Assembly: GCA_023129115.1 (NCBI GenBank)
Contig: JAGMCR010000009.1
Span: 1 to 64,000, forward strand
Reading direction: 5' to 3'
Source: Candidatus Iainarchaeum sp.
Lineage (GTDB): Archaea; B1Sed10-29; WALL01
DNA: 64,000 nucleotides
In this document: in pieces, positions 43 through 59,643 of the stretch
Layout of the letters: every line of letters begins with the position of its first letter
Numbering within the stretch: position 1 is the first letter of the stretch
The notes under the pieces: model-generated
Database searches by the model: none
What the model was told of the DNA's origin: nothing
Seen by the model: only the letters and a program-made list of their open reading frames with translations
Made by a program: the position numbers and the translations under genes

Positions 43-80
43 AACGGGGGGGTCGCCGGAACTGGCGACCCCCCGGTTTC
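43..80. repeat. G/C-tract hairpin element (copy 1); may also act as terminator of the L11-L12 operon
   Basis: GGGGGGTCGCC(47-57)-GGAACT-GGCGACCCCCC(64-74) perfect 11-bp stem; on the minus strand it is followed by a T7 run (29-35) downstream of rpl12. Confidence 0.75.
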
Positions 81-98
81 TTGTGGGGGGGAGAGGGC

Positions 99-117
99 GG
101 GGGCTGTTCCAGCCCCC
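99..117. repeat. G/C-tract hairpin element (copy 2)
   Basis: GGGGGCTG-TTC-CAGCCCCC, 8-bp perfect stem. Confidence 0.65.
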
Positions 118-134
118 TGATTTTGAAGGTAGAT

Positions 135-437
135 TTAGCCGAAGAGTGCTCCGAGGCCAGCTGCAGCCTCTTCCTCGGTTTTGCCCTGTTCCTCGGGCTC
201 TTCTTCCTTCTTTTCCTCGGCCGGGGCGGCGGCAGCTGCGGGAGCAGCCACTGCTGGGGCCACAGCGGCCTTGGAGACCGCTTCCTCGATGTTCACGCCA
301 TCGAGGCTGGCTACGAGGGCCTTCACTCGGGCGTCGTCGGCCTTGCTGCCTGCGGCTTCAAGGACCTTCTTGACGTTTGCCTCGTTGATCTCCTTGCCTT
401 CTGCGTTGAGCAGGAGAGCAGCGTATACATATTGCAT
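135..437 (-). CDS. rpl12: 50S ribosomal stalk protein P1/L12
   Basis: [10 protein letters not shown]...Ala/Glu-rich hinge...GLGALFG C-terminus; operon context. Confidence 0.97.
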
Positions 438-458
438 TCCATATCACCTTTGGATTAT

Positions 459-1304
459 TTATGCTTCCTTGACCAGCGAAGAAATCGCCTTGGCCTGCAT
501 TTCGCCCTTGGCGAGGAGGTCTTCCACAATCCCTTTGTCGAGGATGCTGGCCTCTACGCCGAGGTTCCTGGCCTCGGTGGACGCCTTTTGCAGGAACGTC
601 TCGATGTTTTCCTTCATGAAGTATCCTGCGTTGAAGGCTAGGTTGAACCCGCTCATGTAGGCCTTCTGGATGTTGGAGAGGGTCTCTTCTTCGCTGATGT
701 CGAGTATTTCGGAAGTGAATATCATGCCGTTTTCCAAAGCGGCTTCGAGCGTCATGCCGACTTCCATGGGCTTGAGCCCGAGCTTGGAGAGCGCGGCTGC
801 CTGCTCTTCGGTGATGGTGTCGCCCTCTTTTGCCACTGTGGAGTCCTTCATGACCTTGATTGAGCCGCCGTCTATCCTTGCGTTGATGCCCGCGACCTTG
901 AGCTCTCCGAGGGCTGGGCCTGGCGGCAGGCCGGTGTCGCCCTTGGGGACGACGATGTCGTACGGCGCGGCCTGGCCGGCGCGTGCCGGGGCCATGGACT
1001 TGTTTTTCTTCAGGAAATTGTAGAGCTTGAAGGGGTTGACGTCGCTGAAGATGACTGCGGTGGGGCCTTCCATGTGCCCCTCGAGCTGGCCGAGGCCCTT
1101 GACGCCCGAGTTCTCGAACGCGAGCTTGAGCAGCTTGAGCTTGGCGACCTTGACGACTGCCTGGTCCCTGAGCTTTTCGCGGATTTCCTGGAACTGCGAC
1201 GCGGGGAGCGACTCGATGCTCGAGATGGCTATGACTGGGTGTGCTTTTATGAGCTCTTCGAGGCCTGCCACGGCCTTTTTCTTCCACTCGGCGACGTGTG
1301 CCAT
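459..1304 (-). CDS. rplP0: 50S ribosomal protein L10/P0
   Basis: True start MAHVAEWKK at 1304 (TGA/ATG overlap with L1); GPT..NPF..APARAG..GDTGLPPGP motifs. Confidence 0.96.
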   Translation of the reverse strand: MAHVAEWKKKAVAGLEELIKAHPVIAISSIESLPASQFQEIREKLRDQAVVKVAKLKLLKLAFENSGVKGLGQLEGHMEGPTAVIFSDVNPFKLYNFLKKNKSMAPARAGQAAPYDIVVPKGDTGLPPGPALGELKVAGINARIDGGSIKVMKDSTVAKEGDTITEEQAAALSKLGLKPMEVGMTLEAALENGMIFTSEILDISEEETLSNIQKAYMSGFNLAFNAGYFMKENIETFLQKASTEARNLGVEASILDKGIVEDLLAKGEMQAKAISSLVKEA

Positions 1305-1945
1305 CAGATTCCCTCCGTTATGGCCACTGTCGGGCCCATGGTCGTCTTTACCCGGACGCTGCCGATGTTCTGTGGGCTGGGTATCTTGGCCTTGATTGCG
1401 GAGAGAACGGCTGTGGCGTTGGCGACTAGGTCTTCGGTCGTCATTTCTTCTGTGCCGAACGGGACGTGCAGTACGGGGAGGTTCTTTCCCGTGGTCTTGA
1501 TTATGAGGGTGTTCTTGAGCCGCGCTACGAGCGGCTTGAGGTCCGCGTTCGGGGGCACTGGCTTGGGCATCTTGCCCCGCGGGCCGAGCGCCTGGCCGAG
1601 GAACTTGCCGACGAGCGGCATGAGGTTGGCCTGGGCGATGAATGCGTCGTAGTCGTTGGCGAGGGACTTTATCTTCTTGGGGTCCTTGCCCATGGACTCG
1701 AGCTCGTTGGAGAGTATTACTTTGTCGGCGGCTGCCTTGGCGCTGGACGCCATTTCGTCGCTGCAGATTACGCAGATTTTTTGGTCTTTGCCCCGGCCCT
1801 TGGGCAGCAGGACCTCTAGGCTGATTTTGTTGTCCTGCTTGTTGAAGTCGATGCTCTTGAAGTTGATGAACAAGTCCATCGACTGGACAAAGTTCCTTTT
1901 TTTGGAGTCTGCCTTTGCTTTCTCTATGGCTTCTGCCAGCTTCAT
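1304..1945 (-). CDS. rpl1: 50S ribosomal protein L1
   Basis: KRNFVQSMDL, LGPRGKMPKP, VKTTMGP motifs. Confidence 0.97.
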   Translation of the reverse strand: MKLAEAIEKAKADSKKRNFVQSMDLFINFKSIDFNKQDNKISLEVLLPKGRGKDQKICVICSDEMASSAKAAADKVILSNELESMGKDPKKIKSLANDYDAFIAQANLMPLVGKFLGQALGPRGKMPKPVPPNADLKPLVARLKNTLIIKTTGKNLPVLHVPFGTEEMTTEDLVANATAVLSAIKAKIPSPQNIGSVRVKTTMGPTVAITEGI

Positions 1946-1951
1946 GCAAAA

Positions 1952-2000
1952 TCCCCTCCTAGAGCATGTTTAAGCCGTGGCCGCTCTTAGTCTAAGGGAG
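1952..2000 (-). promoter_or_regulatory. Structured rpl1 5' leader, candidate L1 autoregulatory site
   Basis: TATA box TTTATAAA at 2026-2033; leader folds CUCC/GGGG plus CUA(A)GAGC/GCUCUAG around a GA/CUUAGA asymmetric loop that overlaps the GGAGG SD. Confidence 0.4.
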
Positions 2001-2035
2001 TGGTCTTTGGTTGTGCTTGTGGGGGTTTATAAACA

Positions 2036-2710
2036 TTACTTCTTTGCGGGAGCCTTGTTGTCCTTCTTGGGCTCTTCTTTCTCGGCGGGCTTTTCGGCTT
2101 CCGCGGTCGCTTTTTCGGCTGCCTGTGCCTCTGCCTCTTCCTTGGCTGCTGCCTTGGTCTTGGCCAGCTTGTCCTGGTGCTCCTTGGCTGCTGCCGCGGC
2201 GGCCTCGCGGTCGTACTCGAGGCTCGCGCCTTCCGCGAAGAGGTCGTCGAACTTTCCCTCGTCAATGGCTTTCTGTGCTTCCCTGGGGTCCATTCCCTCG
2301 ACCAGGAGGCCCATGCTTACGCAGGTGCCGATTACTTCTTTGGTGGCTGCCTTGACGGTCTTGGCGAGCATGTTGTCCTGCTTCATTCTGGCGACCTTGA
2401 CCGCGCCCTTCATGGGGAAATCGCCTGCCTTTTGGGTGGCCTGGCTGCCAGAGCCCTTTTCGATTCCGAGCTCTTTCTTGATGAGGGCGGACACGGGTGG
2501 TGTGCCGACCTCGATGCGGAAGCTCTTGTCCGAAGAATTGATTATTACTTTGACCGGGACCTGCATTCCAGCGAAGTCCTTGGTCTTTTCGTTGATGGCG
2601 TTGACGACGTCGCCTATGTTTATGCCCATGGGGCCCAGCGCGGGGCCAAGCGGCGGGCCTGCGTTGGCCTTTCCGCCTTCAACCAATGACTCAATTGTCG
2701 ATTCCGGCAT
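2036..2710 (-). CDS. rpl11: 50S ribosomal protein L11 with Ala/Glu/Lys-rich C-terminal tail
   Basis: GGKANAGPPLGPALGP, VGTPPVSALI, GTCVSMG motifs. Confidence 0.97.
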   Translation of the reverse strand: MPESTIESLVEGGKANAGPPLGPALGPMGINIGDVVNAINEKTKDFAGMQVPVKVIINSSDKSFRIEVGTPPVSALIKKELGIEKGSGSQATQKAGDFPMKGAVKVARMKQDNMLAKTVKAATKEVIGTCVSMGLLVEGMDPREAQKAIDEGKFDDLFAEGASLEYDREAAAAAAKEHQDKLAKTKAAAKEEAEAQAAEKATAEAEKPAEKEEPKKDNKAPAKK

Positions 2711-2786
2711 GATTATCACTATTTCCTAGCTTCCCAGAAAAAGTCCGTAACCCGCTTATTCTGAAGCATGGGGTTTAAAAGCGTTG

Positions 2787-3515
2787 CTATTTCTTGAGGA
2801 CTTTTCTCCGTCTGCGCTTGCGCTTTTCTCCCTCCACAGGCCAAGCCTTGAGTATTGGGCCTTCCTTTTTGTCGCGCTCGATTACGGGGGACTCCTTTTC
2901 CTTGACGAGCACTCCCAAGCGGGACTCCCTCTCGATTTTTTCGAGTATTGCGGTCCTCTCGGCCACCGGGCCCTCGGCGAAGGAAACGCGTTTTATGCGC
3001 CTTCGCTTGCGCGTTGGTGGTTCCAGGTCCATAGATGGTTTCCGTTTCCCTTCCCAGTCCACGGCGGGCTTTTCTTCCTCCCAGTCAACTGTGCCTTTCT
3101 TGGCAGGCGGCTTCTCGGCAGTGGACTCTTCCACCTTGGAGATGACACGCAGCATATCGGTGTCCCGCCCCTCGACAAATTTGGTGAGGTCCTTTGGCGT
3201 ATGGCCGCGGAGGAACGCGCCCAGCGTTGCAGTGAGGTCGTCGTGCAGTTCCTCAAACTGGTCGGCGAGGTCCATCCTCCTGAATGTGACTTCAAGGGTT
3301 TCTGTAATATTCTTCTTTTTCTCCAGGAAAGAGGATCCAAGCGCGCTGTTGTCCGGGTGGTCCAGGTAATCGCTCAGTACAACGTCGTAGTCGTCGCCTT
3401 CCTTCACGCTGCCGTGCTTGTAGCGCATCCCCCTCACGATGGCACTGAAAATGTTCTGGTACTTAGTGTACGCCTTCGTCAGGTCGGTGAGCTGCTTCTC
3501 TTTCGATTCAGACAT
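2787..3515 (-). CDS. Hypothetical protein, paralog A of tandem trio; basic C-terminus
   Basis: Open frame with own promoter-like spacer; shares DDY..L.D.L / FL / LG..LRG pattern with neighbours. Confidence 0.75.
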   Translation of the reverse strand: MSESKEKQLTDLTKAYTKYQNIFSAIVRGMRYKHGSVKEGDDYDVVLSDYLDHPDNSALGSSFLEKKKNITETLEVTFRRMDLADQFEELHDDLTATLGAFLRGHTPKDLTKFVEGRDTDMLRVISKVEESTAEKPPAKKGTVDWEEEKPAVDWEGKRKPSMDLEPPTRKRRRIKRVSFAEGPVAERTAILEKIERESRLGVLVKEKESPVIERDKKEGPILKAWPVEGEKRKRRRRKVLKK

Positions 3516-3559
3516 ACAAAGCACCCTTAATAAAATAAAGAAGTTCCAGCTAAAAAAGC

Positions 3560-4006
3560 CTATGGGCGCTTTTCGTGCTTTGGGAGCTCTGGGAAGGGCT
3601 TGAGCTCGGGGGGTTCTTTCCTACGGTCTGGGCGGGCGAGGTCGTCCATTTGTGTCTTCAGCTCCTTGTGGGACGTGGCGAACTCGTCGGGAGTGATTTT
3701 CCCGCGGAGGGCTTTGCCCATCTTCTGTTCCAGCTCGCTATGCAGCTTTTTAAATCTCGTGGTGAGGCCAACCACCTCCATGTGGTCGCAGGCCTCGATA
3801 AGCTTGTCCCTTAGCCTAAGGAATTCGAATCCCACGTGTGCGTTCTCTTCCTTATTGAGGTGGTCCACCAGTATATCCTCGTAGTCGTCGCCGGAGCCCA
3901 CAGTCCCATGGCCTGCCTCGATAATCTTGACTACTTCGTCCCGAAGGTTCGTGTAGCCGCCGTACATTGTCTTGAAGTCTGCTTCAATGCGCTCTTGCTC
4001 AGTCAT
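3560..4006 (-). CDS. Hypothetical protein, paralog B of tandem trio
   Basis: MTEQER start, GDDYEDILVDHL, MGKALRG. Confidence 0.8.
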   Translation of the reverse strand: MTEQERIEADFKTMYGGYTNLRDEVVKIIEAGHGTVGSGDDYEDILVDHLNKEENAHVGFEFLRLRDKLIEACDHMEVVGLTTRFKKLHSELEQKMGKALRGKITPDEFATSHKELKTQMDDLARPDRRKEPPELKPFPELPKHEKRP

Positions 4007-4020
4007 TCAGGCCACCGGCT
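3990..4020. repeat. 31-bp exact direct repeat, copy 1 (SD + MTEQER start)
   Basis: CGCTCTTGCTCAGTCATTCAGGCCACCGGCT identical to 4538-4568. Confidence 0.95.
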
Positions 4021-4056
4021 TATGATAATGGAGTTCAAACTAAAAAAAGGTTGCTG

Positions 4057-4554
4057 TTACCTTTTCACGACCTTTCTCTTGCGGATGGGCTTTTCAATCA
4101 GGGGCTTTTCAATCATTTGGCCTGAAGGCAAGACTGTTTTCATTTCCCTAAAGACAAGCTTCCGTACATCACCCCGGTGGGCTTTGTGGGACTTTTTGGG
4201 GTCTTTGAACTCTTCGTCTGACAAGTCGTGCATCAGGGCCTTGCCCAGTGCTAGCCTGAACCTATCGTAAGAAAGCCTGAACCGGGTAACAGATGTGAGG
4301 GTATATACGTCTTTGAGGGCTAACTCAAGCCCCCCCTTAGCCCGCAGAAAGTTCTTTACATCTGTTTTATACTTCGCCAAGTCAAGATGGTCGGCGAGTG
4401 CATTATGGTAGTCATCGTTGGTTCTCTTGGCTTTCCCTTCGGCTTTCATGACTCCCTTGTTCTCTTCGATGAGGTCGGCTAGGTTGCTGGAAGCTGTCTC
4501 GTAATCATAAAATGCTGATTCGAGTACTTCAACCTTTCGCTCTTGCTCAGTCAT
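4057..4554 (-). CDS. Hypothetical protein, paralog C of tandem trio
   Basis: MTEQER start, NDDYHNALADHL, LGKALM; AT-richer codons. Confidence 0.8.
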   Translation of the reverse strand: MTEQERKVEVLESAFYDYETASSNLADLIEENKGVMKAEGKAKRTNDDYHNALADHLDLAKYKTDVKNFLRAKGGLELALKDVYTLTSVTRFRLSYDRFRLALGKALMHDLSDEEFKDPKKSHKAHRGDVRKLVFREMKTVLPSGQMIEKPLIEKPIRKRKVVKR

Positions 4555-4568
4555 TCAGGCCACCGGCT
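4538..4568. repeat. 31-bp exact direct repeat, copy 2
   Basis: Identical to 3990-4020. Confidence 0.95.
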
Positions 4569-4624
4569 AGGATTAGGGTAAGTTGAGGCATAAAAGAGTT
4601 AGTCTTTTCGGGATGGTTATATTC

Positions 4625-4680
4625 AAGCAGGGGGGTGCTCGCCAGCTCAGCGGGGGGTGCAACCCCCCAAGGGGCTGCTT
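4625..4680. repeat. G/C-tract hairpin element (copy 3) directly after spt5 stop
   Basis: GGGGGGT-GCA-ACCCCCC (4652-4668) inside outer AAGCAG...CTGCTT arms. Confidence 0.6.
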
Positions 4681-5123
4681 TAGTCCTGCTTTTGGTTGAT
4701 GACGCGGATGCTCGCAGCGTCCATTGTGATGGGGATGGGCACGGTTGCCTCGACGAGCTCGAGCGTGATTTTGTCCTTGGCCTCGTCGACCCGCACGACC
4801 TTGGCCTTCTCGCCCTTGAACGGGCCAGCGGTGAGCTCCACTAGGTCGCCCTTGTGGATGTCCACGGTGAGGCTCTTTTCCTCGAAGAAGTGGCCGACTT
4901 CCGTCAAGTCCACGCCGCCGGAGACGAGCCCCTTGACCTGCGGGACGTTGTAGATTAGCTTGCGGACCTCGGCCTCGTTCGGCGCCTCGGCAAAAATATA
5001 GCCGCGCAGGTTGTCCACCACCACAACGGAGTAGATTTCCTGCTCGCCCTTGGTCTGCTTGGACCTAAGCAGGTCAGCGACTATTCGCTCTTGGCCAACT
5101 GTAGTCCTAATCGTGTAAATCAT
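4680..5123 (-). CDS. spt5: Transcription elongation factor Spt5/NusG
   Basis: MIYTIRTTVGQE NGN domain; KOW motif GDLVELTAGPFKGEKAKV. Confidence 0.96.
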   Translation of the reverse strand: MIYTIRTTVGQERIVADLLRSKQTKGEQEIYSVVVVDNLRGYIFAEAPNEAEVRKLIYNVPQVKGLVSGGVDLTEVGHFFEEKSLTVDIHKGDLVELTAGPFKGEKAKVVRVDEAKDKITLELVEATVPIPITMDAASIRVINQKQD

Positions 5124-5125
5124 TT

Positions 5126-5287
5126 TCAGGTCAGCCCAATAAGCCTTGAGAACAGAATCACGGCGACGCCCAGGACGCCGATGAGTATCATGCCAATCCC
5201 CGTTATCTTGGAAATCATGATAAACTCGTCCTTGCGGGGCTTGCGCGTTAGCCTTAGGACGCGCACTGCCTCGTTGATGAAGCTCAT
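5126..5287 (-). CDS. secE: Protein translocase SecE/Sec61-gamma (absent from ORF track)
   Basis: MSFINEAVRVLRLTRKPRKDEFIMISKITGIGMILIGVLG; conserved ftsZ-secE-spt5 order. Confidence 0.93.
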   Translation of the reverse strand: MSFINEAVRVLRLTRKPRKDEFIMISKITGIGMILIGVLGVAVILFSRLIGLT

Positions 5288-5293
5288 CCAAAA

Positions 5294-6415
5294 TCACTCC
5301 ACGTACTCGACGTCAATCTCGACTTCTTCCTGGAGCAGCCTGGCCTCGTCGAGGTACGGGAACCTCCCGCCCGCGATTACAATCATGGCCTGTAACTTGC
5401 TCCTCTTCATATCGTCGTCAATCATGGCGCCCCAAATGATGTGCGCGTTCGAGTGGATTTTGCTCGCGACTGCCTCGACAATCATCTCGGCCTCGCGCAG
5501 GGTCATGTCCGTGCCGCCGCACACGTTGACGAGCGCGCGGGTCGATTCCGAGACGTCGATGTCCAGCAGCGGAGAGTTCAAGGCGTCCTCGACCGCTTCC
5601 AACGCACGGCCCTCCGAGTCGCCCTCGATTTCTGACTCGCCGAGGCCAATCATTGCCGCCCCGCCGTTGGCGAGGACTGCACGCACGTCGGCGAAGTCCA
5701 GGTTCACGAGGCCGGGCTTGGTGATTAGCTCGGTGATGCCCTTTACCGCGTTCACGAGAATCTCGTCCGCGACCTTGAACGCCGCGTTGATTGGCAGGTC
5801 GGGCACGATTTCGAGCAATTTGTCGTTTGGGATTACGATTACTGTGTCCGATTCCTTGCGGAGCTTCTTGAGCCCGGCGAGCGCGTTCTCCATTCTCCTC
5901 CTCCCTTCGACGCTGAATGGGAGGGTGACCACGCCGAGCGTGAGCGCGCCGATGTCGCGGGCGACCTGGGCAATGATTGGCGCTGAGCCTGTCCCTGTTC
6001 CGCCGCCGAGGCCGCACGTGATGAACACGAGGTCGCTGCTGGCAAGGACTTTTTCGATTGCTTTCACGCTTTCCTTGCTGGCCGCTTCGCCGAGCTCGGG
6101 GTCGCTTCCCGCGCCGAGGCCGCGGGTGATGGTCCTGCCGAGCAAGAGCTTTCTGTCGGCAGGCGTTATGAGCAGGTGCTGGGCGTCTGTGTTCATGGCG
6201 ATGGATTCAGCGCCCTGGACGCCGACCTCGTGGAGGCGGCGCATGGTGTTGTTTCCGGAGCCGCCGGTGCCGACGACACGAATCCTGGCCTGCGAGCTCG
6301 AAAGAATGTCCTCGATTTCCTTGTTGGAGAGCGCAGCCCTCACACGCGGCTTCCTTGCCTTTGACTTTGACTTGGATTTAGCCCTCTTGGCGGCCTTTTT
6401 CACTATTTTCCTCAA
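5294..6415 (-). CDS. ftsZ: Cell division protein FtsZ (FtsZ1 context), basic N-terminal extension
   Basis: GLGGGTGTG tubulin signature, NLDFADV; TTG start with GGTGA SD. Confidence 0.97.
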   Translation of the reverse strand: MRKIVKKAAKRAKSKSKSKARKPRVRAALSNKEIEDILSSSQARIRVVGTGGSGNNTMRRLHEVGVQGAESIAMNTDAQHLLITPADRKLLLGRTITRGLGAGSDPELGEAASKESVKAIEKVLASSDLVFITCGLGGGTGTGSAPIIAQVARDIGALTLGVVTLPFSVEGRRRMENALAGLKKLRKESDTVIVIPNDKLLEIVPDLPINAAFKVADEILVNAVKGITELITKPGLVNLDFADVRAVLANGGAAMIGLGESEIEGDSEGRALEAVEDALNSPLLDIDVSESTRALVNVCGGTDMTLREAEMIVEAVASKIHSNAHIIWGAMIDDDMKRSKLQAMIVIAGGRFPYLDEARLLQEEVEIDVEYVE

Positions 6416-6444
6416 GAAGAATCACCTTGCCTATCACGCTGTAA

Positions 6445-6468
6445 GCACAATTAGCGGCGTAATTGTGC
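6445..6468. promoter_or_regulatory. Palindromic operator candidate at the ftsZ promoter
   Basis: GCACAATTA-N6-TAATTGTGC perfect inverted repeat just downstream of TATA TTTAAA (6478-6483). Confidence 0.55.
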
Positions 6469-6503
6469 AGAAAGGGGTTTAAATAGGTTATGCTGTTTAC
6501 TGG

Positions 6504-7247
6504 TTATCCTTGCATGGCCTTCTCTAATTCCATGGCGAGGTAATCAGTTAACGACCTTTCTTCGAAAATGCCTTTTTTGACAATTTTCTTGACTAGGTTA
6601 GGGACTGGTTCGCCAGTCAAATCAGACAGATAGATTATCGCTTCAGTAATGGCAGTTGGCGGAGTCTGAGCCAGTATGCCTGGCTTAAGCCCCTTATCGA
6701 TTTCCTTCAAACGTTTGCACATCTCAAGATACTCTTGCGGAGACCCATATGCGTTCTCATGTACATCTTCTTTGACCGAGGGGTGCAGGTTTTCTTCCCC
6801 CAAGACAAAATAAGCTAACGCTTTACTGACTGATTCATGAAAAGTCTTGAACTTTGAGTAATGCGTGGAAGGATCATTGCCATCTTTGCCGACAAGATGC
6901 ATGAGGACAACGTGGGACAATTCTTCCGGAATCGTGCGCCTAGCGAGTTCTACCTCGCCGAAAATGCCTGCACGTTGATTTGCCCCAAGATGATACTCGA
7001 ACTTGCCGTTTACTTCGAGGGGGAGGGCTACACCAGTAGTGAACTTAGAAACGAGGTTGGAACTATGACTAGCGATTTTGTCTTGCGATTCTTTTGATGC
7101 AGAGGGGTGGTTGGCAACGTAATCCTTTGCATCACCCACAGACTCATGGAATACTATCTTCTCAGGGAGTTCAAAATGAGTTGAGAGTATACTGTTCACC
7201 CTGTTTACCCTATCACGAGCCCACTCTGCCCTGACTTCAATAGGCAT
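6504..7247 (-). CDS. Orphan AT-richer protein, possible zincin-like fold (EExxH variant)
   Basis: 247-aa ORF; PEELSHVVL followed about 20 aa later by FHES. Confidence 0.7.
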   Translation of the reverse strand: MPIEVRAEWARDRVNRVNSILSTHFELPEKIVFHESVGDAKDYVANHPSASKESQDKIASHSSNLVSKFTTGVALPLEVNGKFEYHLGANQRAGIFGEVELARRTIPEELSHVVLMHLVGKDGNDPSTHYSKFKTFHESVSKALAYFVLGEENLHPSVKEDVHENAYGSPQEYLEMCKRLKEIDKGLKPGILAQTPPTAITEAIIYLSDLTGEPVPNLVKKIVKKGIFEERSLTDYLAMELEKAMQG

Positions 7248-7384
7248 GAATCCGATTTATGCCTCTGAGAGTTTAAATAGGTTCTTGACTGACTGTTCCA
7301 CTTGCCACGAGCGGGTTGTATTGGCTCCAAGAGGATTCATAGAAGAACCTAACCTTTAAATCCCAAGACTGCTTTTTAGCACCC

Positions 7385-8284: not shown

Positions 8285-8319
8285 ATCTTTATAAACAACG
8301 GCTCCGTTAGTGGGATTGG

Positions 8320-11946: not shown

Positions 11947-13065
11947 ATGGTGAAAAAGATTGCCGAGGGGAGCCACGCCGTGGCAGAAGTCGTGCGGCTT
12001 CTGAACCCGGACGTGCTGGCAATGTACCCAATCACTCCGTCGACACATATCCCTGAGCGGCTGAGCGACTTCGAGTCCGACGGGGAATTGGATGGCACGA
12101 TAATCCGTGTCGACTCAGAGTTTTCGGCGATGTCCGCGCTCGTGGGCGCGAGCGCGACTGGCGTGAGGACGTACACGGCGACGAGCAGCCAAGGGCTGGC
12201 ACTAATGCACGAGGTCTTGTTCGTCGCGTCCGCGATGAGGCTGCCGATTGTCATCACGGTCGTGAACCGCGCGCTTAGCGCGCCATTGAATATCTTTAAC
12301 GACTGGCAGGACTCGATTAGCGAGCGCGACTCGGGATGGATACAGATGTACGGAGAGGACTCGCAGGAAGTCGCGGACCTGATGGTGCAGGCGTACCGCA
12401 TCGCGGAAGACAAGAGGGTGCTGCTGCCGGTCATGGTGTGCATGGACGGCTTTTTCTTGAGCCATACCTACGACGTGATTGACGTGCCCGAGGACCTGAA
12501 GGGGTTCGTGCCTCCGTACAAGCCAGAGCACGCGTACCTGGACCCGAAGAGGCCGCAGACGCAGGGCGCGTGGGCCATGCAGGAGCCCTACTTCGAGCTG
12601 AGGAAAGAGCTGGAGGAGGCGGTGGGCGCGGCGCTGCCAGTGATAAAAGAGGTTCATGACGAGTTTGCGAAAGTGTTCGGCCGAAGTTATGGGGGCGGGG
12701 CCATTGATGTCTATGGCGAGGGCGACACTGTCGTTGTGTCCATGGGCAGCGTGTGCACCAACCTAAAGGTCCTTGCCGACAGGCTGGGCTTCCAGGTGGT
12801 GCGCGTGAGGTGCTACCGGCCGTTCCCGGCCGAAGACGTTAAGAAGGCGCTGGAGGGGAAGAAGGCGGTTGCGGTGTTCGAGAAGGACGTTGCGTACGGC
12901 ACTGGCCACGGCGCGCTCTACAACGACGTGCGGGCGTGCACGACGGGCAAGGCAGTGAACTTCATCGTCGGGCTCGGCGGGCTGGACGTCCCAATCAATG
13001 CACTGGAGAAGATGTGCGGGGAGATAGATGCCATGAATGACGGCGAGACGAGGTGGCAGAGATGA
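11947..13065 (+). CDS. porA: Oxidoreductase alpha subunit
   Basis: YPITPST, SEFSAMS, TATSSQGL. Confidence 0.95.
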   Translation: MVKKIAEGSHAVAEVVRLLNPDVLAMYPITPSTHIPERLSDFESDGELDGTIIRVDSEFSAMSALVGASATGVRTYTATSSQGLALMHEVLFVASAMRLPIVITVVNRALSAPLNIFNDWQDSISERDSGWIQMYGEDSQEVADLMVQAYRIAEDKRVLLPVMVCMDGFFLSHTYDVIDVPEDLKGFVPPYKPEHAYLDPKRPQTQGAWAMQEPYFELRKELEEAVGAALPVIKEVHDEFAKVFGRSYGGGAIDVYGEGDTVVVSMGSVCTNLKVLADRLGFQVVRVRCYRPFPAEDVKKALEGKKAVAVFEKDVAYGTGHGALYNDVRACTTGKAVNFIVGLGGLDVPINALEKMCGEIDAMNDGETRWQR

Positions 13066-13151
13066 CTATGATGCCTCTGGGGGCATCTGTTGATGCCCCC
13101 AAGTCTACCGCGCCAGCTGAGGTTTCGGCTGAGATGAGGTGGCAGAGATGA
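13045..13151. mobile_element. 65-bp hairpin insert (13066-13130) bracketed by 21-bp direct repeats
   Basis: GAGACGAGGTGGCAGAGATGA (13045-13065) vs GAGATGAGGTGGCAGAGATGA (13131-13151), 20/21; internal GGGGGCATC-TGTT-GATGCCCCC. Confidence 0.65.
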
Positions 13152-16316: not shown

Positions 16317-16346
16317 GGGGGGCTACGCCAATTGGCGTAGCCCCCC
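16317..16346. repeat. G/C-tract hairpin element, perfect 30-bp palindrome
   Basis: GGGGGGCTACGCCAATTGGCGTAGCCCCCC; smaller GGGG-ATTAA-CCCCC hairpin at 16354-16367. Confidence 0.85.
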
Positions 16347-33826: not shown

Positions 33827-34393
33827 CTACTTCGCCTCCTCTTCGGCTGGCTCTTCCTCTTCTTCAGGGTTTTCCTCACCAGAAGAACTGGGAGAGTCGC
33901 CAGTTGGCGACTCCCCGGTTGGAACGTTCTCCGGCTCTTCGGTTGGAGAGTCTTCTGCCTTTTCGGCTGTGGCTTCGGTTGGCTCGGCTGCCTTCTTGGC
34001 TTTCTTCTTGGCTTTCTTCTTGGCTTTCTTCTTGGCTGTCTTCTTCTTCGGAGCCGCCGCTTTCTTCGGCTCTTCTTTTTCTTCGACTGCCTCGTAGGCA
34101 GCGATGATTTCTTCCTTGGCCGCGCCCTGGACAGCGCGCTGGCTTATCCTGCCGACGTCTGTTTGGGGGGCGTACGCGCCGCCGGCCAGCTTGGTCCTGC
34201 ACTTGGTGCACTCCCAGATGCCGGTCGAGACGCGCTTCAGCGAGACCTTGCCGCACTGCGGGCACTTGTGCTTGGACTTGGCCTTAGCCTCCGCCTTTCG
34301 CACGTTCTCGCGGATTTTCCTTCCGTAGCGCGCGCCGTACCTTCCGGCTATGCCGACCTTCTTGGTCTTCCTCAGCCTCTTCCTTGTGGCCAT
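33827..34393 (-). CDS. rpl37ae: 50S ribosomal protein L37Ae with about 100-aa Lys-rich then acidic C-terminal extension
   Basis: GRYGARYG, CPQCGK, GIWECTKC, GGAY; ATG at 34393. Confidence 0.95.
   Translation of the reverse strand: MATRKRLRKTKKVGIAGRYGARYGRKIRENVRKAEAKAKSKHKCPQCGKVSLKRVSTGIWECTKCRTKLAGGAYAPQTDVGRISQRAVQGAAKEEIIAAYEAVEEKEEPKKAAAPKKKTAKKKAKKKAKKKAKKAAEPTEATAEKAEDSPTEEPENVPTGESPTGDSPSSSGEENPEEEEEPAEEEAK
33886..33920. repeat. G/C-tract hairpin element in frame within L37Ae tail
   Basis: AACTGGGAGAGTCGCCAGTTGGCGACTCCCCGGTT, close sequence relative of 43-78. Confidence 0.7.
33992..34037. repeat. 12-bp tandem repeat (about 3.8 copies) encoding AKKK
   Basis: CTTCTTGGCTTT x3 plus partial copy. 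Confidence 0.9.
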
Positions 34394-47527: not shown

Positions 47528-47528
47528 G

Positions 47529-49873: not shown

Positions 49874-49887
49874 TGGGTGATTTATAG

Positions 49888-50232: not shown

Positions 50233-50249
50233 AGGCGTTCTGGTCTTCT

Positions 50250-50918: not shown

Positions 50919-50941
50919 AATGTTATATTTGTAACATTATG
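50916..50941. promoter_or_regulatory. Perfect palindromic operator candidate
   Basis: CATAATGTTA-N6-TAACATTATG between divergent ACT and B3/4 genes. Confidence 0.65.
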
Positions 50942-50971
50942 TATATATATGTAACTAAGCCCAATTATCGC

Positions 50972-51649: not shown

Positions 51650-51693
51650 GTCAGGTCACAGGAAAGATGATTTCGAGGCCTGCCTTGAAGCCG

Positions 51694-52236: not shown

Positions 52237-52313
52237 AGTAACCACGTTAGTAAAGGAACCTCGGAAAGTTATACAAGAAAGCTTTATAAAAGCATGAAGA
52301 GGTATTAAAGTAT

Positions 52314-53567: not shown

Positions 53568-54861
53568 GCTCGCCCTTAAGATTCGATGTCATGAGTTCTT
53601 TTACTTTGTCACCCTTGGCATGCGCCAGCACCCAGCCGAGCTTTACGTACGCCGTCTCGGCGGTCATGTCGTACGCCGGGATTGCGCCCGCGTCGTGGTA
53701 CAAAATGCGCAGGTTGGTGTAAACATTCGGGTTCACCGTGCCGTAGATGCACTGCGTCGCGACGACAATGGGGACACCGCTTTTGACGGCGGACTTTATG
53801 CGGGGAATCCAGCTCTTGCGCGCCTTTGTCGGCACGTGGCCGAGCGCAGTGCCCTCGATGACGAGGCCCTTGGCGCCGCTGTCCACGTGGTAGTCGATTA
53901 TTTTTGGGTCCGAGCCGGGATACGCCTTCAGCAGGGCGATGTGGCGCTCGAATTTCGTGTCTACCTCGGTTTTACCAGTGCCGCGCTTCTTAAATTTAGA
54001 AATGGGCTCGATTTTCCCGTCAGGGTAAATCTTGGCGAGGGGGTAGTCATTAATAGGCTTAAAAGCAGGCCTGACAGTACTACTCATTTTCCTCACTTTC
54101 GTTCCCCTCAAGAAATAGCAGTAATCATCAGAAAAGGTAGCGTGCATACAAGTCCCGACTTCAGCTATGTCGGACAGCGCGGCGTAGGCGGAACAAGTAA
54201 GGTTCAGCACCGCGTCCGCAGAGCCGCGGTCGCTCGAGCGCTGCGCGCCCGTGATTATGACTGGCTTCGTGGTGTTGAGCATGAAGGACAAGGCGGCTGA
54301 GGTGTAGTGCATGGTGTCCGTCCCTTGGGTAATTATGACGCCCTCTGCCTTGTCAAGCGCTTTTGCAGTGGCCTTGGCAAGGTCCACCCAGTCAAGCGGG
54401 TCAAGGTCCTCACTCATTTTCTCGAGGACTGTCTTGGTCTTGATGCACGCAATGTCGCCGAGCTCGGGCACGAGTGCAATCAAGTCGTCGCCCGTCATGT
54501 CAGTATAGACCGCGCCCGTGGAATAGTCAACGCGCGAAGTGATGGTGCCACCCGCACCGAGGAGCGCGATGTGCTTCTTTCCCTTGCACGACTGCTTTGC
54601 CTTTGCGTGGCCGCCGGTCTCGTACTTGTATTCCTTGGTGATTCTCTTGGGCTCGGGAGTGGAAGACTTGCTGATGGTTTGGCCCTCGTACTTTATGCCA
54701 ATGTTGTAGCCGTTGTCCAGCTTGAGCACGATGTGGTCCGGTGAAGCAGTGATTTCGGGCGACGGCATTAACAGGCCTTCCTCACTCCCAACAACAATTC
54801 TGTCGCCTACGGCTGCCTTCGCCGCCTTCAGGGCACCCTGTATCTCCCTGGAATAAGCCAT
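53527..54861 (-). CDS. gatD: Glu-tRNA(Gln) amidotransferase subunit D
   Basis: LKLDNGYNIG, GGTITSRVDY.TGAV, GTDTMHY, GAQRSSDR. Confidence 0.96.
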   Translation of the reverse strand: MAYSREIQGALKAAKAAVGDRIVVGSEEGLLMPSPEITASPDHIVLKLDNGYNIGIKYEGQTISKSSTPEPKRITKEYKYETGGHAKAKQSCKGKKHIALLGAGGTITSRVDYSTGAVYTDMTGDDLIALVPELGDIACIKTKTVLEKMSEDLDPLDWVDLAKATAKALDKAEGVIITQGTDTMHYTSAALSFMLNTTKPVIITGAQRSSDRGSADAVLNLTCSAYAALSDIAEVGTCMHATFSDDYCYFLRGTKVRKMSSTVRPAFKPINDYPLAKIYPDGKIEPISKFKKRGTGKTEVDTKFERHIALLKAYPGSDPKIIDYHVDSGAKGLVIEGTALGHVPTKARKSWIPRIKSAVKSGVPIVVATQCIYGTVNPNVYTNLRILYHDAGAIPAYDMTAETAYVKLGWVLAHAKGDKVKELMTSNLKGELNPQLEPDMFLYK

Positions 54862-55548
54862 TCAACCACTCGACGTTAGCTTTTCGCCCTTCTCGTTTTT
54901 AATGATAGGCACGGCCACGACTTCCAGTGGCTGGAGCCCGAGCTCGATGCGCTTTTCATTGATTAGGTCGGCGCTGGGCCTCGTCTCGTCGCTGACCACG
55001 ATGGTGCTGAACCGCGGCTCAAGCGCAAAGCCGTAGACGTCATCTATCTCGCAAATCACTGCGCCCCAGCCCATTTCCGAGAGGAACCGCTCGAGGCCTG
55101 CCTGCCTCTCCGCGAACGAAGGCACGTTGGAGTGCTTGGAAGACGCGAACTCGTCGCTCGTCAAGCCGATTTCCACTATCTTCCCAAGCGCGAACGCCAT
55201 GCTGAACAAGTACTCGTGGCCCTTGTGGATAGCGCTGAAGGTCCCGCCAACACAGACCATGTCGCCCTTCTCTGCCGAAGCGTCCGGGAGGCGGATGTGC
55301 TCCAGGGAGCTGGAAGGAGTGGCAGCACTGGAGGAGCCGGCTTCTTCGCCACTGGGGGGGCTGGCAACTGCCAGCCCCCCGGTTTCAGCTTCTTCCTCCC
55401 CCGGTTGTGGCTCCTCTTCGACGGTTTCTGGCTCTTCTTCAGTTTCTTGTTTTTCCTCCCCGGTTTCTTCTTCGGGCTCCAAAAGCAGGTCCTCGTCTTC
55501 TTCAATGTCCATTGCCGGGTCCAGCGGCGGGGGTGGGGGGCTGTTCAT
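54862..55548 (-). CDS. coaD: Phosphopantetheine adenylyltransferase with long acidic N-terminal extension
   Basis: VGGTF..IHKGH, GLTSD, IVVSDET, IN..R...GL.PL, SS; start position uncertain. Confidence 0.85.
   Translation of the reverse strand: MNSPPPPPLDPAMDIEEDEDLLLEPEEETGEEKQETEEEPETVEEEPQPGEEEAETGGLAVASPPSGEEAGSSSAATPSSSLEHIRLPDASAEKGDMVCVGGTFSAIHKGHEYLFSMAFALGKIVEIGLTSDEFASSKHSNVPSFAERQAGLERFLSEMGWGAVICEIDDVYGFALEPRFSTIVVSDETRPSADLINEKRIELGLQPLEVVAVPIIKNEKGEKLTSSG
55351..55386. repeat. G/C-tract hairpin element in frame within PPAT extension
   Basis: ACTGGGGGGGCTGGCAACTGCCAGCCCCCCGGTTTC; same ends as copy 1. Confidence 0.75.
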
Positions 55549-56213
55549 TGCACCACCGTCCCACGCGTTCTTCCCTTGAGCGTCGACTCTATCTCGCCGG
55601 GAGTGCCGTTGATTATGAAGGTCCTTATTTTGGAGCGAGCGATTAGCTTGGCCGCGAGGAGGTCGAACACGAAGTGCGTCCTCGCGCCGCGCGCGTCCTG
55701 CTCCGCCGAGAGAGATATTAGTCTGGCGAACTTCATTTTCCGGAATTTTTTGGCGGACTTGTGCTTGCGCGGGTCCTTGGTGTACACTCCGTCCACGTTG
55801 GTGGCGTTGACAAGCTTTTTGGCGCCGATTGCCTCGGCGAGGAGGGCTGCGACGGTGTTCGTGGTGTGGCCCGGGACAGTGCCACCCATGACCGTGATGC
55901 CCTTGCGCTTCGCTTCCCTGCGGGCCTCGTCGATTGTTGCCGGGACTTTGCCGCGGAGGCCGAGCGCCTTGCGGAGGAGCATCGCGTTCTTGCGGGTTTG
56001 CCTGATTGCGACTGCGTCGAGGTCGTACTCGCTCACGCGCCTTTTCCTGGCGGCGAGGAGTGCTTTTTCGCCGCGCTTCCCCATGCCGACGACCACACCG
56101 ACGACCGTGCGCCTTTTTAAGCGCTGCAATATAGAACTGACTTCCTTGACGTAACCCGCGTCTGTTTTGCCGGGAAACACCAGAGAGCCTCCAATCTTCA
56201 GGACTATGGCCAA
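55545..56213 (-). CDS. pyrH: UMP kinase
   Basis: IVLKIGGS, PGHTTN.VAA, ATNVDGVY.KDP, GT at C-terminus. Confidence 0.9.
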   Translation of the reverse strand: MAIVLKIGGSLVFPGKTDAGYVKEVSSILQRLKRRTVVGVVVGMGKRGEKALLAARKRRVSEYDLDAVAIRQTRKNAMLLRKALGLRGKVPATIDEARREAKRKGITVMGGTVPGHTTNTVAALLAEAIGAKKLVNATNVDGVYTKDPRKHKSAKKFRKMKFARLISLSAEQDARGARTHFVFDLLAAKLIARSKIRTFIINGTPGEIESTLKGRTRGTVVQ

Positions 56214-56266
56214 ATCAACACCTCAGGCATTAAATACGCGGGACTATTATAAAAACGTGACTCGAA

Positions 56267-57457
56267 ATGGCGCACTCGAAAGAGAGGTACCTCTTCCGCA
56301 AGAAGCTGAAGGAACTGTCCGAAATGAAGGGACAGGGGACAGAATTGATTAGTATCTACATTACGCCCGGCTACAACGTCAGCGAGGTCACGAACAAGCT
56401 CCGCGAAGAAGCTGGCCAGGCCATGAACATCAAGAGCAAGCAGACGCGGAAAAACGTGAGTGCCGCGATTGAGCGGCTCCTGCACGCGCTGAAGAACATG
56501 AAGAAGCCGCCCGAGAACGGGCTCGCGATTTTTTCGGGAAACATCGACGACAAGGTCGAGTTGTTCTCGATTGAGCCGCCCGAGCCACTGAATATCCAGA
56601 CGTACAGGTGCGACTCACAGTTCTTTTTGGACCCGCTGTGGGACATGCTCGAGGCCAAGGAGGCGTACGGCCTGATTATTGTTGACAGGCGCGAGGCCAC
56701 GCTCGCGCTGCTGAAGGGCAAGCGCATCGAGCTAATAAAGTCCATGGGGTCGCAGGTCCCCGGAAAGCACCGCGCCGGCGGGCAAAGCAGCGTGCGTTTT
56801 GAAAGGCTTATTGAAATCGCCGCGCACGAGTGGTTCAAGAAAGTCGGCGACCTGGCGAACAAGAACTTCGAGCCCGAAGAGGTCAAGGGCGTTATTTTGG
56901 GTGGGCCGGGCCCGACCAAGCACGGGTTCCTGAACGCGGACTACCTCAGCAACAAAACCAAGAAAAAAATTGTCGCCACTGTGGACACGAGCTACACCGA
57001 CGAGTTCGGCATACGCGAGCTGATGCAGAAGTCTGGCGACGTGATGCACGACCTCGAGATAATCAAGGAAAAGAAGCTCCTCGAAAAGTTTTTGAGCGAG
57101 GCGGCGCTAGGCGGCCTGGCGGCGTACGGCGAGAAAGAGGTGCGCGAGGCGCTCACGATGGGCAAAGTGGACACACTGCTCTTGAGCGAGGAATTGATGT
57201 GGAAGCGCGTCGAGTTCAAGTGCCCCCAGTGCGGCGCAATCAAGGAGATGACGGTGAAGGAGCACATGCCACTCGTGAAGTGCGACAAGGACCACATGAA
57301 CATGGCGCCGCACGTCGAGAAGGACTTCGTGGAAGAATTGGCCGAGCTCGCGGAGCAGATGGCCAGCAAAATCGAGATGATTTCGACGGACACGCCGGAA
57401 GGGGAACAATTTAAAGAGGGGTTTGGTGGGATAGGTGCGCTCCTGAGGTTTAAATAA
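56267..57457 (+). CDS. prf1: Peptide chain release factor aRF1
   Basis: GTELIS, NIKS, YRCD, GGQS. Confidence 0.97.
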   Translation: MAHSKERYLFRKKLKELSEMKGQGTELISIYITPGYNVSEVTNKLREEAGQAMNIKSKQTRKNVSAAIERLLHALKNMKKPPENGLAIFSGNIDDKVELFSIEPPEPLNIQTYRCDSQFFLDPLWDMLEAKEAYGLIIVDRREATLALLKGKRIELIKSMGSQVPGKHRAGGQSSVRFERLIEIAAHEWFKKVGDLANKNFEPEEVKGVILGGPGPTKHGFLNADYLSNKTKKKIVATVDTSYTDEFGIRELMQKSGDVMHDLEIIKEKKLLEKFLSEAALGGLAAYGEKEVREALTMGKVDTLLLSEELMWKRVEFKCPQCGAIKEMTVKEHMPLVKCDKDHMNMAPHVEKDFVEELAELAEQMASKIEMISTDTPEGEQFKEGFGGIGALLRFK

Positions 57458-57502
57458 TATATAAGGAAAAGCTTATATATGTAAGTAATTCCTAATACCT
57501 GC

Positions 57503-58066
57503 ATGCGGCTCGACAGAGTTTTAAACGAACTGCTTGGTTCTCAAGCCAAAGTAAGGATTACAAGGGTGGTTGTCACTAACCCCCGGCTGGAGCACACCGG
57601 GAGGGAACTTGCCCTGATTGCGGAAATATCTCAACCACAAGCCAAGGAAGCGCTGGGGGTGTTGGAGACTTATGGGGTGGTTGGGAGCAGGACCGTGGGG
57701 CGGGCAATCGTGTGGAGACTAAATAAAAAAAACTATATTTACAAAGAATTGCTGCTGCCTTTGTTCACGAATGAAAAAATGGTGCTAAGGGATTTGAAAA
57801 AAGAACTTGCCCGGACTCTCGAGCCATTCTCGGAAAAAGTCATTTTATTTGGGAGCATTGCCCGGGAGGGGGGCGGGTCGTCAAGTGACTTGGACTTGTG
57901 TGTTGTCACAAAGAACAAGAAACTAGCCAAAAAAGCACTCTTGGATTTGGGGGCAGAAATTGCCAGAAAGTATAATATAGTTGTTTCGTCAGTAATTTAT
58001 TCGCCGAAAGAATACAAAACATCAAAAATAATCGAGGGGGGAGAGGCAATATGCGAACGAGGATAG
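57503..58066 (+). CDS. HTH-MNT minimal nucleotidyltransferase (antitoxin)
   Basis: N-terminal HTH; ILFGS.AR.....SDLDL; AT-rich. Confidence 0.85.
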   Translation: MRLDRVLNELLGSQAKVRITRVVVTNPRLEHTGRELALIAEISQPQAKEALGVLETYGVVGSRTVGRAIVWRLNKKNYIYKELLLPLFTNEKMVLRDLKKELARTLEPFSEKVILFGSIAREGGGSSSDLDLCVVTKNKKLAKKALLDLGAEIARKYNIVVSSVIYSPKEYKTSKIIEGGEAICERG

Positions 58067-58449
58067 TGGAAAAATTCAAGTACAATAATTTTCTTCAAAA
58101 GGCTAGAGAGTTTTATGACGAGATGAATGAGGCCCATGCAGCAAAGCGCTGGAATGCTGTTGGATTAAACGGTATTCACTGTGCAATCAGCTGCTGCGAC
58201 GCGGTGACAGTTTACTTTCTCGGCAAACGAAGTGCTGGAGAGCGACACGAAGAAGTGGTCAAACTGCTACAGCAAATAAAGGACGTCGATGAAAAAGTAA
58301 TAAAGCAGAGGATTGTGCAGATTCTTGATGTGCTGAGGTCCAAAACACGAGTGGAGTACCACGCAGAAGTATTTTCTGAGAAAGAAGCTGGCATGATAGT
58401 CAAGCAAACAAAACGGGTTTATGAATGGACAACTGGGCTACTTAAATGA
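58051..58449 (+). CDS. HEPN-domain protein (toxin partner)
   Basis: KA.EF..M..A..W.., DA, G.RH, K...EY; coupled to MNT. Confidence 0.8.
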   Translation: MRTRIVEKFKYNNFLQKAREFYDEMNEAHAAKRWNAVGLNGIHCAISCCDAVTVYFLGKRSAGERHEEVVKLLQQIKDVDEKVIKQRIVQILDVLRSKTRVEYHAEVFSEKEAGMIVKQTKRVYEWTTGLLK

Positions 58450-59519
58450 TAATCAAGCAGTCGCCGCAAGATTTTGTTGTCGAAGAAATAACTCTTGACG
58501 GGGAAGTGCTGGAGGTCGGGAAAGAATATTCTTTTTCTGGTGGGGAGGGAGAGCACCTTGTTTTTGTGCTGGAGAAGACAAACTGGGCGACTATGGGCGC
58601 GATGAAGGAATTGGGAAAGCGCTTGCATTGCTCGGAAAAGCGCTTGGGGTTCGCGGGCACCAAGGACCGGCGCGCCGTGACAACGCAGAGGTGCTCTGCG
58701 TGGAACGTGAAGAAGGAAGAGCTTGACAAAGTAAATATAAAAGACATAACGCTGAAGCCGCTCTGCTATGGCGAGCGCGTGGGGCTCGGCGACCTGTGGG
58801 GGAACAGGTTCACGATAACAGTGCGGGAGTTCGACGGCGAGGGAAAAATGCCGGAGAAAATCCCGAATTTTTTCGGGCCGCAGCGGTTTGGGGGGCAGAG
58901 GCCGATAACCCACCTCGTCGGCAAGGCGATTGTGAACGGCCAGTTCCACGACGCCGCCGACATATACCTTTTTGAGACGATGGAGGGCGACCCGGAGAGG
59001 GAAGTGCGGGAGAAATGCAGGGGCGACTACGCCCGCGCCCTCAAGGAATTCCCGATGCACCTTAAGTACGAGCGGTCGATGCTTGGCTGGCTCGCGAAGA
59101 GCCCGGGCGACTGGGTGGGTGCGCTGCGGGCATTGCCGCGGAAATTGCTGGTGATGTTCGTTCATGCTTACCAGTCGCACTTGTTCAACCGCGTGCTCGA
59201 GGAGCGGGGCATTGAGCCGAGGAAAGGGGACGTCCTTGAGGAGGGAGTGCCCACGGGCCCGCTGTTTGGCATGGAGTGCCCGCTCGCCGCCGGGGAGGCG
59301 GGCGAGATTGAGCGCCGCGTGCTTGAGGGCGAGTGGCTGGGGCTGAGGGACTTCGAAATCCACGGCATGCCTGACCTGACGAGCAAGGGCATGAGGCGGA
59401 GGCTCTGGATTGAGCCGAAGGGCTTCGAGGTGTTGGAGGGGGGCGGGAGCTGGATAAAAGTAAGGTTTTCGCTGCCGAAGGGGTGCTACGCGACTACTGC
59501 GTTAGATTACCTGAAGTAG
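58446..59519 (+). CDS. truD: tRNA pseudouridine(13) synthase TruD
   Basis: K..PQDFVVEE, AGTKDRRAVT.Q, GNRF.I, PNFFG.QRFG, F.LPKG.YAT. Confidence 0.95.
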   Translation: MIIKQSPQDFVVEEITLDGEVLEVGKEYSFSGGEGEHLVFVLEKTNWATMGAMKELGKRLHCSEKRLGFAGTKDRRAVTTQRCSAWNVKKEELDKVNIKDITLKPLCYGERVGLGDLWGNRFTITVREFDGEGKMPEKIPNFFGPQRFGGQRPITHLVGKAIVNGQFHDAADIYLFETMEGDPEREVREKCRGDYARALKEFPMHLKYERSMLGWLAKSPGDWVGALRALPRKLLVMFVHAYQSHLFNRVLEERGIEPRKGDVLEEGVPTGPLFGMECPLAAGEAGEIERRVLEGEWLGLRDFEIHGMPDLTSKGMRRRLWIEPKGFEVLEGGGSWIKVRFSLPKGCYATTALDYLK

Positions 59520-59643
59520 ATGCCTCTGGGGGGCGTCAACTGCCACCGGCTTAGGGGGGCGCCGACTGGCGCCCCCCTAGTCCATTGCGATGGCTTGGTA
59601 GTCTAACGCGAAGTTATCCTAAGCTGTTAGATTACCTTCAGTA
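59501..59643. mobile_element. About 107-bp hairpin insert bracketed by 18-bp direct repeats
   Basis: GTTAGATTACCTGAAGTA (59501-59518) vs GTTAGATTACCTTCAGTA (59626-59643), 16/18; internal TAGGGGGGCGCC-GACT-GGCGCCCCCCTA. Confidence 0.6.

Follow-up and report, generated by a model that had tools for sequence, protein, structure and literature searches.

The attC sites of integrons are single imperfect hairpins in which R'' pairs with R' and L'' with L', with extrahelical bases. REP/RAYT elements are not known to produce a target duplication. Islands targeted to tRNA genes by tyrosine integrases, tandem accretions of such islands and the e14/icd case show displaced or replacement gene ends with synonymous changes. 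In the integron literature, attC sites, CALINs (clusters of attC sites lacking integron-integrases) and secondary attG sites are described, and integrons are said to act on transforming single-stranded DNA (10.1101/2022.02.06.479319, 10.1101/2022.09.11.507474, PMC12614218). YPAL/RU-2 and RPE are short palindromic repeats without genes, the duplications made by YPAL being 3-26 bp long (PMC2229807). The arrays of effector-immunity genes of the type VI secretion system (T6SS) of Vibrio and rhs orphan 3' ends are ascribed to sequential displacement by homology-facilitated illegitimate recombination, which is described as rare (PMC5361080). Here we describe a family of two-hairpin modules found in a window of 64,000 nt (Candidatus Iainarchaeum sp., assembly GCA_023129115.1, contig JAGMCR010000009.1, positions 1 to 64,000), which on balance is probably explained by import of DNA through homology on one side, with the second junction fixed by a hairpin. 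To our knowledge, no fixed end signal for homology-facilitated illegitimate recombination has been described.

The genes of the window are archaeal by Pfam, and the host is taken to be a DPANN archaeon. The host genome (G000; 1.25 Mb, 19 contigs, 88.6% complete; the window is C19:1-64000) was compared with two congeners, G002 (84% complete) and G001. The main module is about 60 nt long and directional. It consists of a 7-nt leader, a variable GC-rich hairpin (hairpin 1), a conserved 12-nt linker similar to AAGYCTAACGTGC and a terminal hairpin of 7 bp with the loop GTT, as recovered by profiles seeded on the copy between porA and porB and then by a covariance model. The model matches 58 sites in G000, 37 in G002 and 9 in G001; 38 other genomes gave no match. 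The family is known from a single genus of small archaea. The exact module core occurs at 9 metagenome loci and on no viral contig. Rfam and tRNA scans of the window gave no match.

Pairing was assessed in 38 copies (6 from G000, 21 from G002, 2 from G001 and 9 from metagenomes) aligned by sequence only. Pairing reaches 95.9% in the terminal hairpin, 3 of whose 7 pairs show two-sided changes, and 72.7% in hairpin 1. The paired fraction was reached by none of 500 shuffles, a significance that is inflated by related copies. In 32 folds the module usually forms two separate hairpins with an unpaired linker between them. The two ends of the module are unlike each other beyond a weak resemblance of 4-5 nt, so there are no clear terminal inverted repeats.

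The copies in the window and the sequences joined to them are as follows (plus or minus strand where the feature has one).
47..74: free-standing G..C hairpin in the trailer of rpl12 (P1), followed on the coding strand, after about 10 nt, by a T7 tract.
99..117: small G..C hairpin directly past the rpl12 stop codon, matched at this position in G002 and G001 as well.
4626..4677, plus: second ("D-type") module, which ends with GCTG beside the Spt5 stop codon and holds the hairpin 4652-4668.
13046..13065, plus: upstream copy of a duplicated anchor, the end of porA with its stop codon.
13072..13131, plus: complete main module with leader, hairpin 1 (13079-13100), linker and terminal hairpin; covariance E-value 6e-16 for a copy that belongs to the training set of the model.
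13132..13151, plus: downstream copy of the anchor with 1 mismatch in 20 nt, which includes the likely ribosome-binding site and ATG of porB.
16317..16346: free-standing perfect palindrome of 15 bp between divergent genes.
33886..33920, minus: in-frame copy (PTGESPTGDSPS) in the low-complexity C-terminal extension of eL43 (L37ae), gene 33827-34393.
55351..55384, minus: in-frame copy (TGGLAVASPPS) in the N-terminal extension of a cytidylyltransferase-like gene, 54862-55548.
59521..59626, plus: composite past the truD stop codon, made of a 5' arm of the main module, the nested hairpin 59552-59579, and a decayed linker and terminal hairpin.
59627..59644, plus: displaced truD tail, ending in LDYLQ-stop where the functional gene has LDYLK-stop, and joined at G^TT.

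An earlier note on the window had described a family of hairpins built from a tract of 5-7 G, a variable paired core and a C tract. All the hairpins it listed exist at their coordinates, with the centres and the common outer ends it gave, and the duplication-flanked inserts that it reported are present at porA/porB and truD. The excess over shuffled sequence for which it asked is genome-wide: 56 G..C hairpins with a stem of at least 10 were found in G000. The 22 controls, consisting of 16 local shuffles plus 6 order-6 Markov genomes, yielded 0-4, and the reversed C..G pattern none. With a stem of at least 9 the numbers are 67, 1-8 and 3, respectively. The inner arms vary and yet pair, perfectly in 42 of 44 copies selected by pattern, with 19 distinct arm pairs. 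Some details need correction. The G tract of 33886-33920 reads GGGAGAG, with one mismatch, and 4652-4668 is the inner hairpin of a bigger module. The hairpin 99-117 recurs at this place in all three congeners and so looks like a conserved trailer hairpin, probably an old one rather than a recent insertion. An undescribed non-autonomous element had also been suggested; it is indeed gene-less, conserved in structure and polymorphic between congeners, but the data do not support the G..C hairpin itself as the unit, the fixed junction being at a second, terminal hairpin.

The exact hairpin pattern occurs in two of 61 genomes, G000 and G002; a match in a third (G005) was dismissed as a chance coding match. 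The 67 hairpins of G000 lie in the main module (10), in the second module (4), in predicted genes (16) or stand free (37). In the module alignments, GCCAATTGGC-type hairpins appear as one form of hairpin 1. The first bases of the linker are kept on one flank in 26 of 53 hairpins outside modules, compared with 7% by chance, and these hairpins are therefore read as remnants of modules; this link is indirect, and it makes the free-standing hairpins probable remnants of hairpin 1. Exact direct repeats that flank the G..C hairpins proper seldom exceed the length expected by chance, and the duplication signal is found at the terminal hairpin instead. One and the same loop occurs in both orientations with the polarity of the flanks unchanged (CAGTTG in 4 copies, CAACTG in 3). 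Such inversions fit template-switch mutagenesis as presented in PMC8604942. The template switching proposed in the note plausibly shapes hairpin 1, to whose diversity it probably contributes whichever model holds. At G000:C3:70629, C5:44907 and C12:137430, tandem half-hairpins are repeated next to complete ones, as if older hairpins had been entered at their centre by new copies; the truD composite resembles them. Runs of at least five G on the plus strand of the window number 75, and runs of at least five C number 31.

Orthologous sites are reciprocally filled and empty in the congeners. At the por junction G000 has the module while both G002 and G001 are empty, and the module 4626-4677 is missing from the Spt5 trailer in both congeners. 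A close copy of the latter module fills the junction between pyrH and the eRF1 gene in G001, where G000 and G002 are empty. Two insertions of G002 correspond to empty sites in G000. At truD, G002 has an intact module. The palindrome 16317-16346 and the eL43 copy are common to G000 and G002 only: the former has one compensated and one broken pair in G002, and the latter has paired changes there. No counterpart of 47-74 was seen in G002 or G001, where the flank aligns poorly. The decayed module end at truD supplies the stop codon of the convergent gene 59619-60473, which reads through the displaced truD tail (59619-59644). The segments 6504-7350 and 57503-58449 of the window are present in G000 and skipped in alignments with G002 and G001, and showed no module at their edges; they include a nucleotidyltransferase gene, possibly part of an MNT-HEPN pair.

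The 3' end of the module is fixed. It is joined to a point that lies 7-90 nt within a conserved host sequence, counted from its edge. These anchors are tRNA ends, gene tails, gene heads with their promoters, and an rRNA trailer. On its other side the unit leads into a different allele of that edge, either directly or after up to several kilobases of cargo. In G000, sequence lying at most 420 nt upstream is found again after 30 of 59 module ends, compared with 4 of 150 random sites; the por end was placed 10 nt off in this count, and more distant anchor copies were sought on contigs C7 and C12 only. The module ends in G, the first base after it is mixed, and the second is T in 64 and C in 1 of 105 copies, which are not independent, the frequencies near gene ends being 0.18 and 0.24. 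The join thus usually falls at an N-T step and almost never at N-C. A rule of GCTG microhomology was abandoned, as the junctions vary, and so was a restriction to RNA 3' ends, since the anchors include antisense heads and promoters. Inspection by eye revealed no covariation that would indicate guide pairing between linker and target. Modules also stand directly 5' of tRNA-Ser genes, between promoter and tRNA, in several lineages (G000:C5:9151, C4:39253, loci L034, L043, L077 and L078).

The displaced coding pieces are intact alleles. Fourteen displaced coding pieces, picked by eye, leniently scored and not independent, are all in frame and ungapped, and 68 of their 93 differences are synonymous, including swaps between serine codon families and between stop codons. 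Without five nuclease heads the synonymous share is 38 of 48, whereas an identical duplicate decaying neutrally would give 0.33. Since the pieces remain in frame and differ mostly at synonymous positions, they were working alleles until recently. The recoding extends to the stop codon beside the module (TGA/TAG, TAG/TAA); in a radical-SAM gene the two copies agree throughout the first 49 nt and are recoded over the last 40 nt.

In several arrays such units are stacked. Five units on contig C7 of G000 repeat the order of cargo, module and diverged anchor copy behind a sequence taken, on inspection by eye, for the end of the 23S rRNA. In G002 (contig C6) 11 module ends lie on the same strand over 17.5 kb, 0.4-4 kb apart, and are followed either by recoded heads and promoter pieces of a gene for a RecB-family PD-(D/E)XK nuclease, or by the same rRNA-trailer anchor as in G000. 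A stack of three displaced heads of another gene was found in G001. The cargo differs from unit to unit, with genes on both strands, and the displaced gene heads differ from one another. Anchors of these kinds, at the rRNA trailer and at the heads of the nuclease and other genes, indicate that edges of conserved sequence serve in either orientation. The nuclease gene (G000:C7:49136-50284; G002:C6:22923-24071) faces away from its array, like intI in an integron, and the array contains repeated fragments from the first 18-29 codons of this gene.

We suggest the following mechanism. An incoming strand from a related strain or species, of the structure anchor, cargo, module, would pair with the recipient by its homologous anchor. 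The terminal hairpin would set the point at which its non-homologous end joins the displaced recipient strand, both junctions being coupled in a single step. The resident edge and its cargo would be shifted downstream and not deleted, and repetition of the event would produce the cassette arrays. The joining enzyme would act in trans or come from the host. The free and in-frame G..C hairpins may be stranded halves of hairpin 1, whose arms would be kept matched partly by template switching, and those in protein linkers may be tolerated as Pro/Gly-rich sequence. A stronger form of the proposal, which we offer only tentatively, is a dedicated system of gene capture independent of integrases, in which the two-hairpin signal and a strand-joining enzyme of the host or supplied in trans would make any conserved gene edge an attachment site for cassettes. 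Each event would bring a foreign allele, stack cargo and retarget through the carried stub, with Pro/Gly-rich protein linkers as a by-product.

Several observations weigh against one-sided import. A duplication control shifted downstream gave 20 of 183, probably because the units stack. Nearby duplications follow only 10 of 34 ends in G002 and 2 of 10 in metagenomes, the count in G001 being 2 of 2. The selection of the coding cases, noted above, tells in the same direction. Only 3 of 37 free-standing hairpins lie within 300 nt of a terminal hairpin. The signals of the folding strand conflict, as G-T pairs point to the top strand and energies to the bottom strand in 22 of 32 folds. No joining enzyme was found in the genomes, which are incomplete, nor any integrase common to the two module-rich genomes. 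DprA, whose presence in G000 speaks for import (a strong match at G000:C12:20019-20630 outside the called gene set), was not found in G001-G004. Finally, changes shared by the first bases of the displaced pieces suggest that the stub travels with the module, which fits circular intermediates better. Assembled contigs from three sequencing runs over C19:46501-66500 contain no empty-site or circle joint at the units and carry no evidential weight.

A Pfam scan of the 72 open reading frames of the window (E<=1e-5) agrees with the earlier note that it encodes no transposase or RAYT; further genes came from our own hexamer caller (1315 genes, approximate boundaries). The linked RAYT/HUH or reverse transcriptase genes that the note proposed to seek were not found in five genomes, G000-G004 (84-98% complete, all incomplete). 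Y1 HUH transposase (PF01797), reverse transcriptase (RVT_1, PF00078), IS110 DEDD transposase, Cas1 and serine resolvase each gave 0 of 5, with positive controls detected. A DDE transposase is represented by a sub-threshold fragment in G000 and was not found in G001 or G002. The search for Y2 transposases returned nothing and is uninformative, as no positive control was detected either, and that for the PolX palm was weak, with nothing above the cut-off and the controls also below it. The RecB-family nuclease, which stands at the head of the arrays in both module-rich genomes, is present in 4 of 31 genomes; in two unrelated ones, G019 and G023, no modules were seen near it. As it is also widespread (988 matches), it is treated as an anchor and a weak enzyme candidate. 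A single tyrosine integrase (PF00589) was found in G000 and none in G002. It has a Zn ribbon and is read as belonging to the tRNA-island type. At G000:C12:74872-103070, the 14-nt end of a tRNA-Thr gene recurs at least 13 times in the 28 kb behind that gene. This integrase lies there at 78360-79529 and a displaced integrase head at 101464, together with inverted arm repeats of two families that have no relation to the hairpin module. In G001 a related gene lies beside tRNA-Ser(GCT) (C33:3-926), and five copies of the end of that tRNA, some with modules, are found at C28:6700-9800.

These data may be set against the other explanations. Two-ended insertion of an element like a miniature inverted-repeat transposable element (MITE), with target duplications of variable length, the working copy being later recoded by recombination with other strains and the displaced copy frozen, is rather improbable. 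It would account for several duplications that are identical or nearly so (16-39 nt, as well as the por pair), and for a thermosome gene that is intact on the 3' side of a module and has a short copy between two modules; the duplications of YPAL in Yersinia, 3-26 bp (PMC2229807), are a precedent. However, clear terminal inverted repeats are lacking, recoding reaches the stop codon next to the module, cargo and displaced heads differ between units, and the DDE search was as good as empty. Still less probable are Campbell-type circles of stub, cargo and module, excised between stubs and integrated by a relaxed tyrosine recombinase with the module as attachment arm. The same-strand arrays agree with them, and the junction bias is like that of the GWT secondary sites of integron integrases (10.1101/2022.09.11.507474). 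Thirty-seven module ends lie downstream of tRNAs, and the tails could be aligned for 24, at least two of them poorly. Six of these 24 stubs begin at the T-loop G^TT, with C56 changed in all six, and the mismatches are clustered by the hairpin (36 of 96 in bases 1-4, compared with 35 of 243 past base 8). Three long displaced nuclease heads share a junction and a Lys-to-Asn change in two genomes. The integrases in the tRNA-Thr array of G000 and beside tRNA-Ser in G001 point the same way. On the other hand, there is no attC-type fold, and the 84% complete G002, with 37 modules, yielded neither a PF00589 match nor a homologue of the G000 integrase, while homologues occur in module-free genomes as well as in G001. 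Only 3 of 13 tRNA-Thr end copies come after a module, with unlike arm repeats at others, and the stubs vary from 7 to 90 nt.

Immobile host terminators or RNA-stabilizing stems perfected by template-switch mutagenesis are a very improbable account of the family. The retention of 99-117 after rpl12 in three genomes and the T tract after 47-74 suit them, and these two may be intrinsic terminators; 12 of 49 hairpins lie in convergent gaps, compared with 70 of all 541 gaps, and the loop inversions fit template switching. Yet a T tract adjoins only 3 of 51 intergenic copies, divergent gaps hold 13 of 49 hairpins and genes 16 of 67, and displaced alleles and cargo are left unexplained. The polymorphism of orthologous sites refutes this account for the whole family, though it may hold for single copies, and the ordinary operon-end terminators that the earlier note had named as the explanation fatal to its proposal are not what we see. 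The least probable reading is SINE-like or resembles prime editing: an RNA with the terminal hairpin at its end would be copied by target-primed reverse transcription. This would agree with a fixed 3' end, a variable 5' end and duplication, and many units in sense orientation at tRNA and stop-codon ends. The five genomes gave no RVT_1, the anchors include antisense heads and promoters, and the cargo lies on both strands.

The two copies in frame in housekeeping genes were correctly described as such (eL43 and the cytidylyltransferase-like protein), but they are confined to extensions that G001 lacks, and thus lie outside the conserved domains. The G002 extension of the cytidylyltransferase-like protein differs and holds pieces of a module. 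The ATGA overlap with pyrH suggests that the extension in G000 is translated, although an internal Met could be the true start. Of 16 coding copies inspected by eye, 13 are in linkers or tails rich in Pro, Thr, Glu, Ala and Lys. They mostly read PT-GG..PP, often with repeated half motifs, and 8 of the 9 that can be oriented keep the polarity of the module.

If one-sided import is the true mechanism, a portable hairpin that fixes the second junction would explain how small DPANN archaea without integrons gain genes in arrays, and the module would be a defined 60-nt substrate for finding the enzyme. The family also points to a route by which low-complexity extensions arise in ribosomal and membrane proteins. 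An insertion reaction with one anchor and a fixed end could serve genome engineering.

No published description of the module family was found in a search that covered subscription journals thinly and did not extend to supplements. The earlier note had likened the hairpins to REP/BIME, RPE and MJRE repeats. They share with YPAL, RPE and REP/BIME their short palindromic gene-less form, mosaics and in-frame fusions. The likeness does not hold for the units, which carry foreign gene alleles and cargo genes; we know of no REP, RPE or MJRE that does so. Unlike the small bacterial repeats, the modules have no terminal inverted repeats or TA ends and no Y1 transposase was found in the five genomes; their allele-swapped duplications reach 90 nt, cargo is counted in kilobases, and in-frame copies are about 9 codons in low-complexity extensions. 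The duplications after 30 of 59 ends set them apart from REP/RAYT elements. Filled and empty orthologous sites are as in MITEs, whereas a duplication length of 7-90 nt is not fixed.

As in tRNA-integrase islands and e14/icd, there are displaced tRNA 3' ends, T-loop junctions, and replacement ends with synonymous changes. However, one module serves many targets at variable junctions instead of one fixed core with a cognate integrase, most units have no integrase, and antisense heads are used as anchors. Integron cassettes are similar in the structure-conserved hairpins that space cargo in same-strand arrays (G002 C6 and the G000 C7 stack), in a G^NT-like bias, and in an RYYYAAC-like word in the linker. 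They differ in having one R/L-box hairpin where the module folds as two; no IntI was found, though an IntI-specific profile was not run, each unit has a piece of host anchor, and cargo lies in either orientation with its own promoter region. The T6SS arrays of Vibrio and the rhs orphan ends also combine a homologous anchor at one junction with a non-homologous join at the other; there, too, the old end is retained and moves downstream, and no integrase has been shown. Likewise, a displaced intact anchor allele is found here downstream of the new unit, in frame in all the coding cases. What distinguishes the archaeal arrays is that the portable hairpin of the module fixes the second junction at dozens of unrelated anchors, and that a part of the anchor is duplicated.

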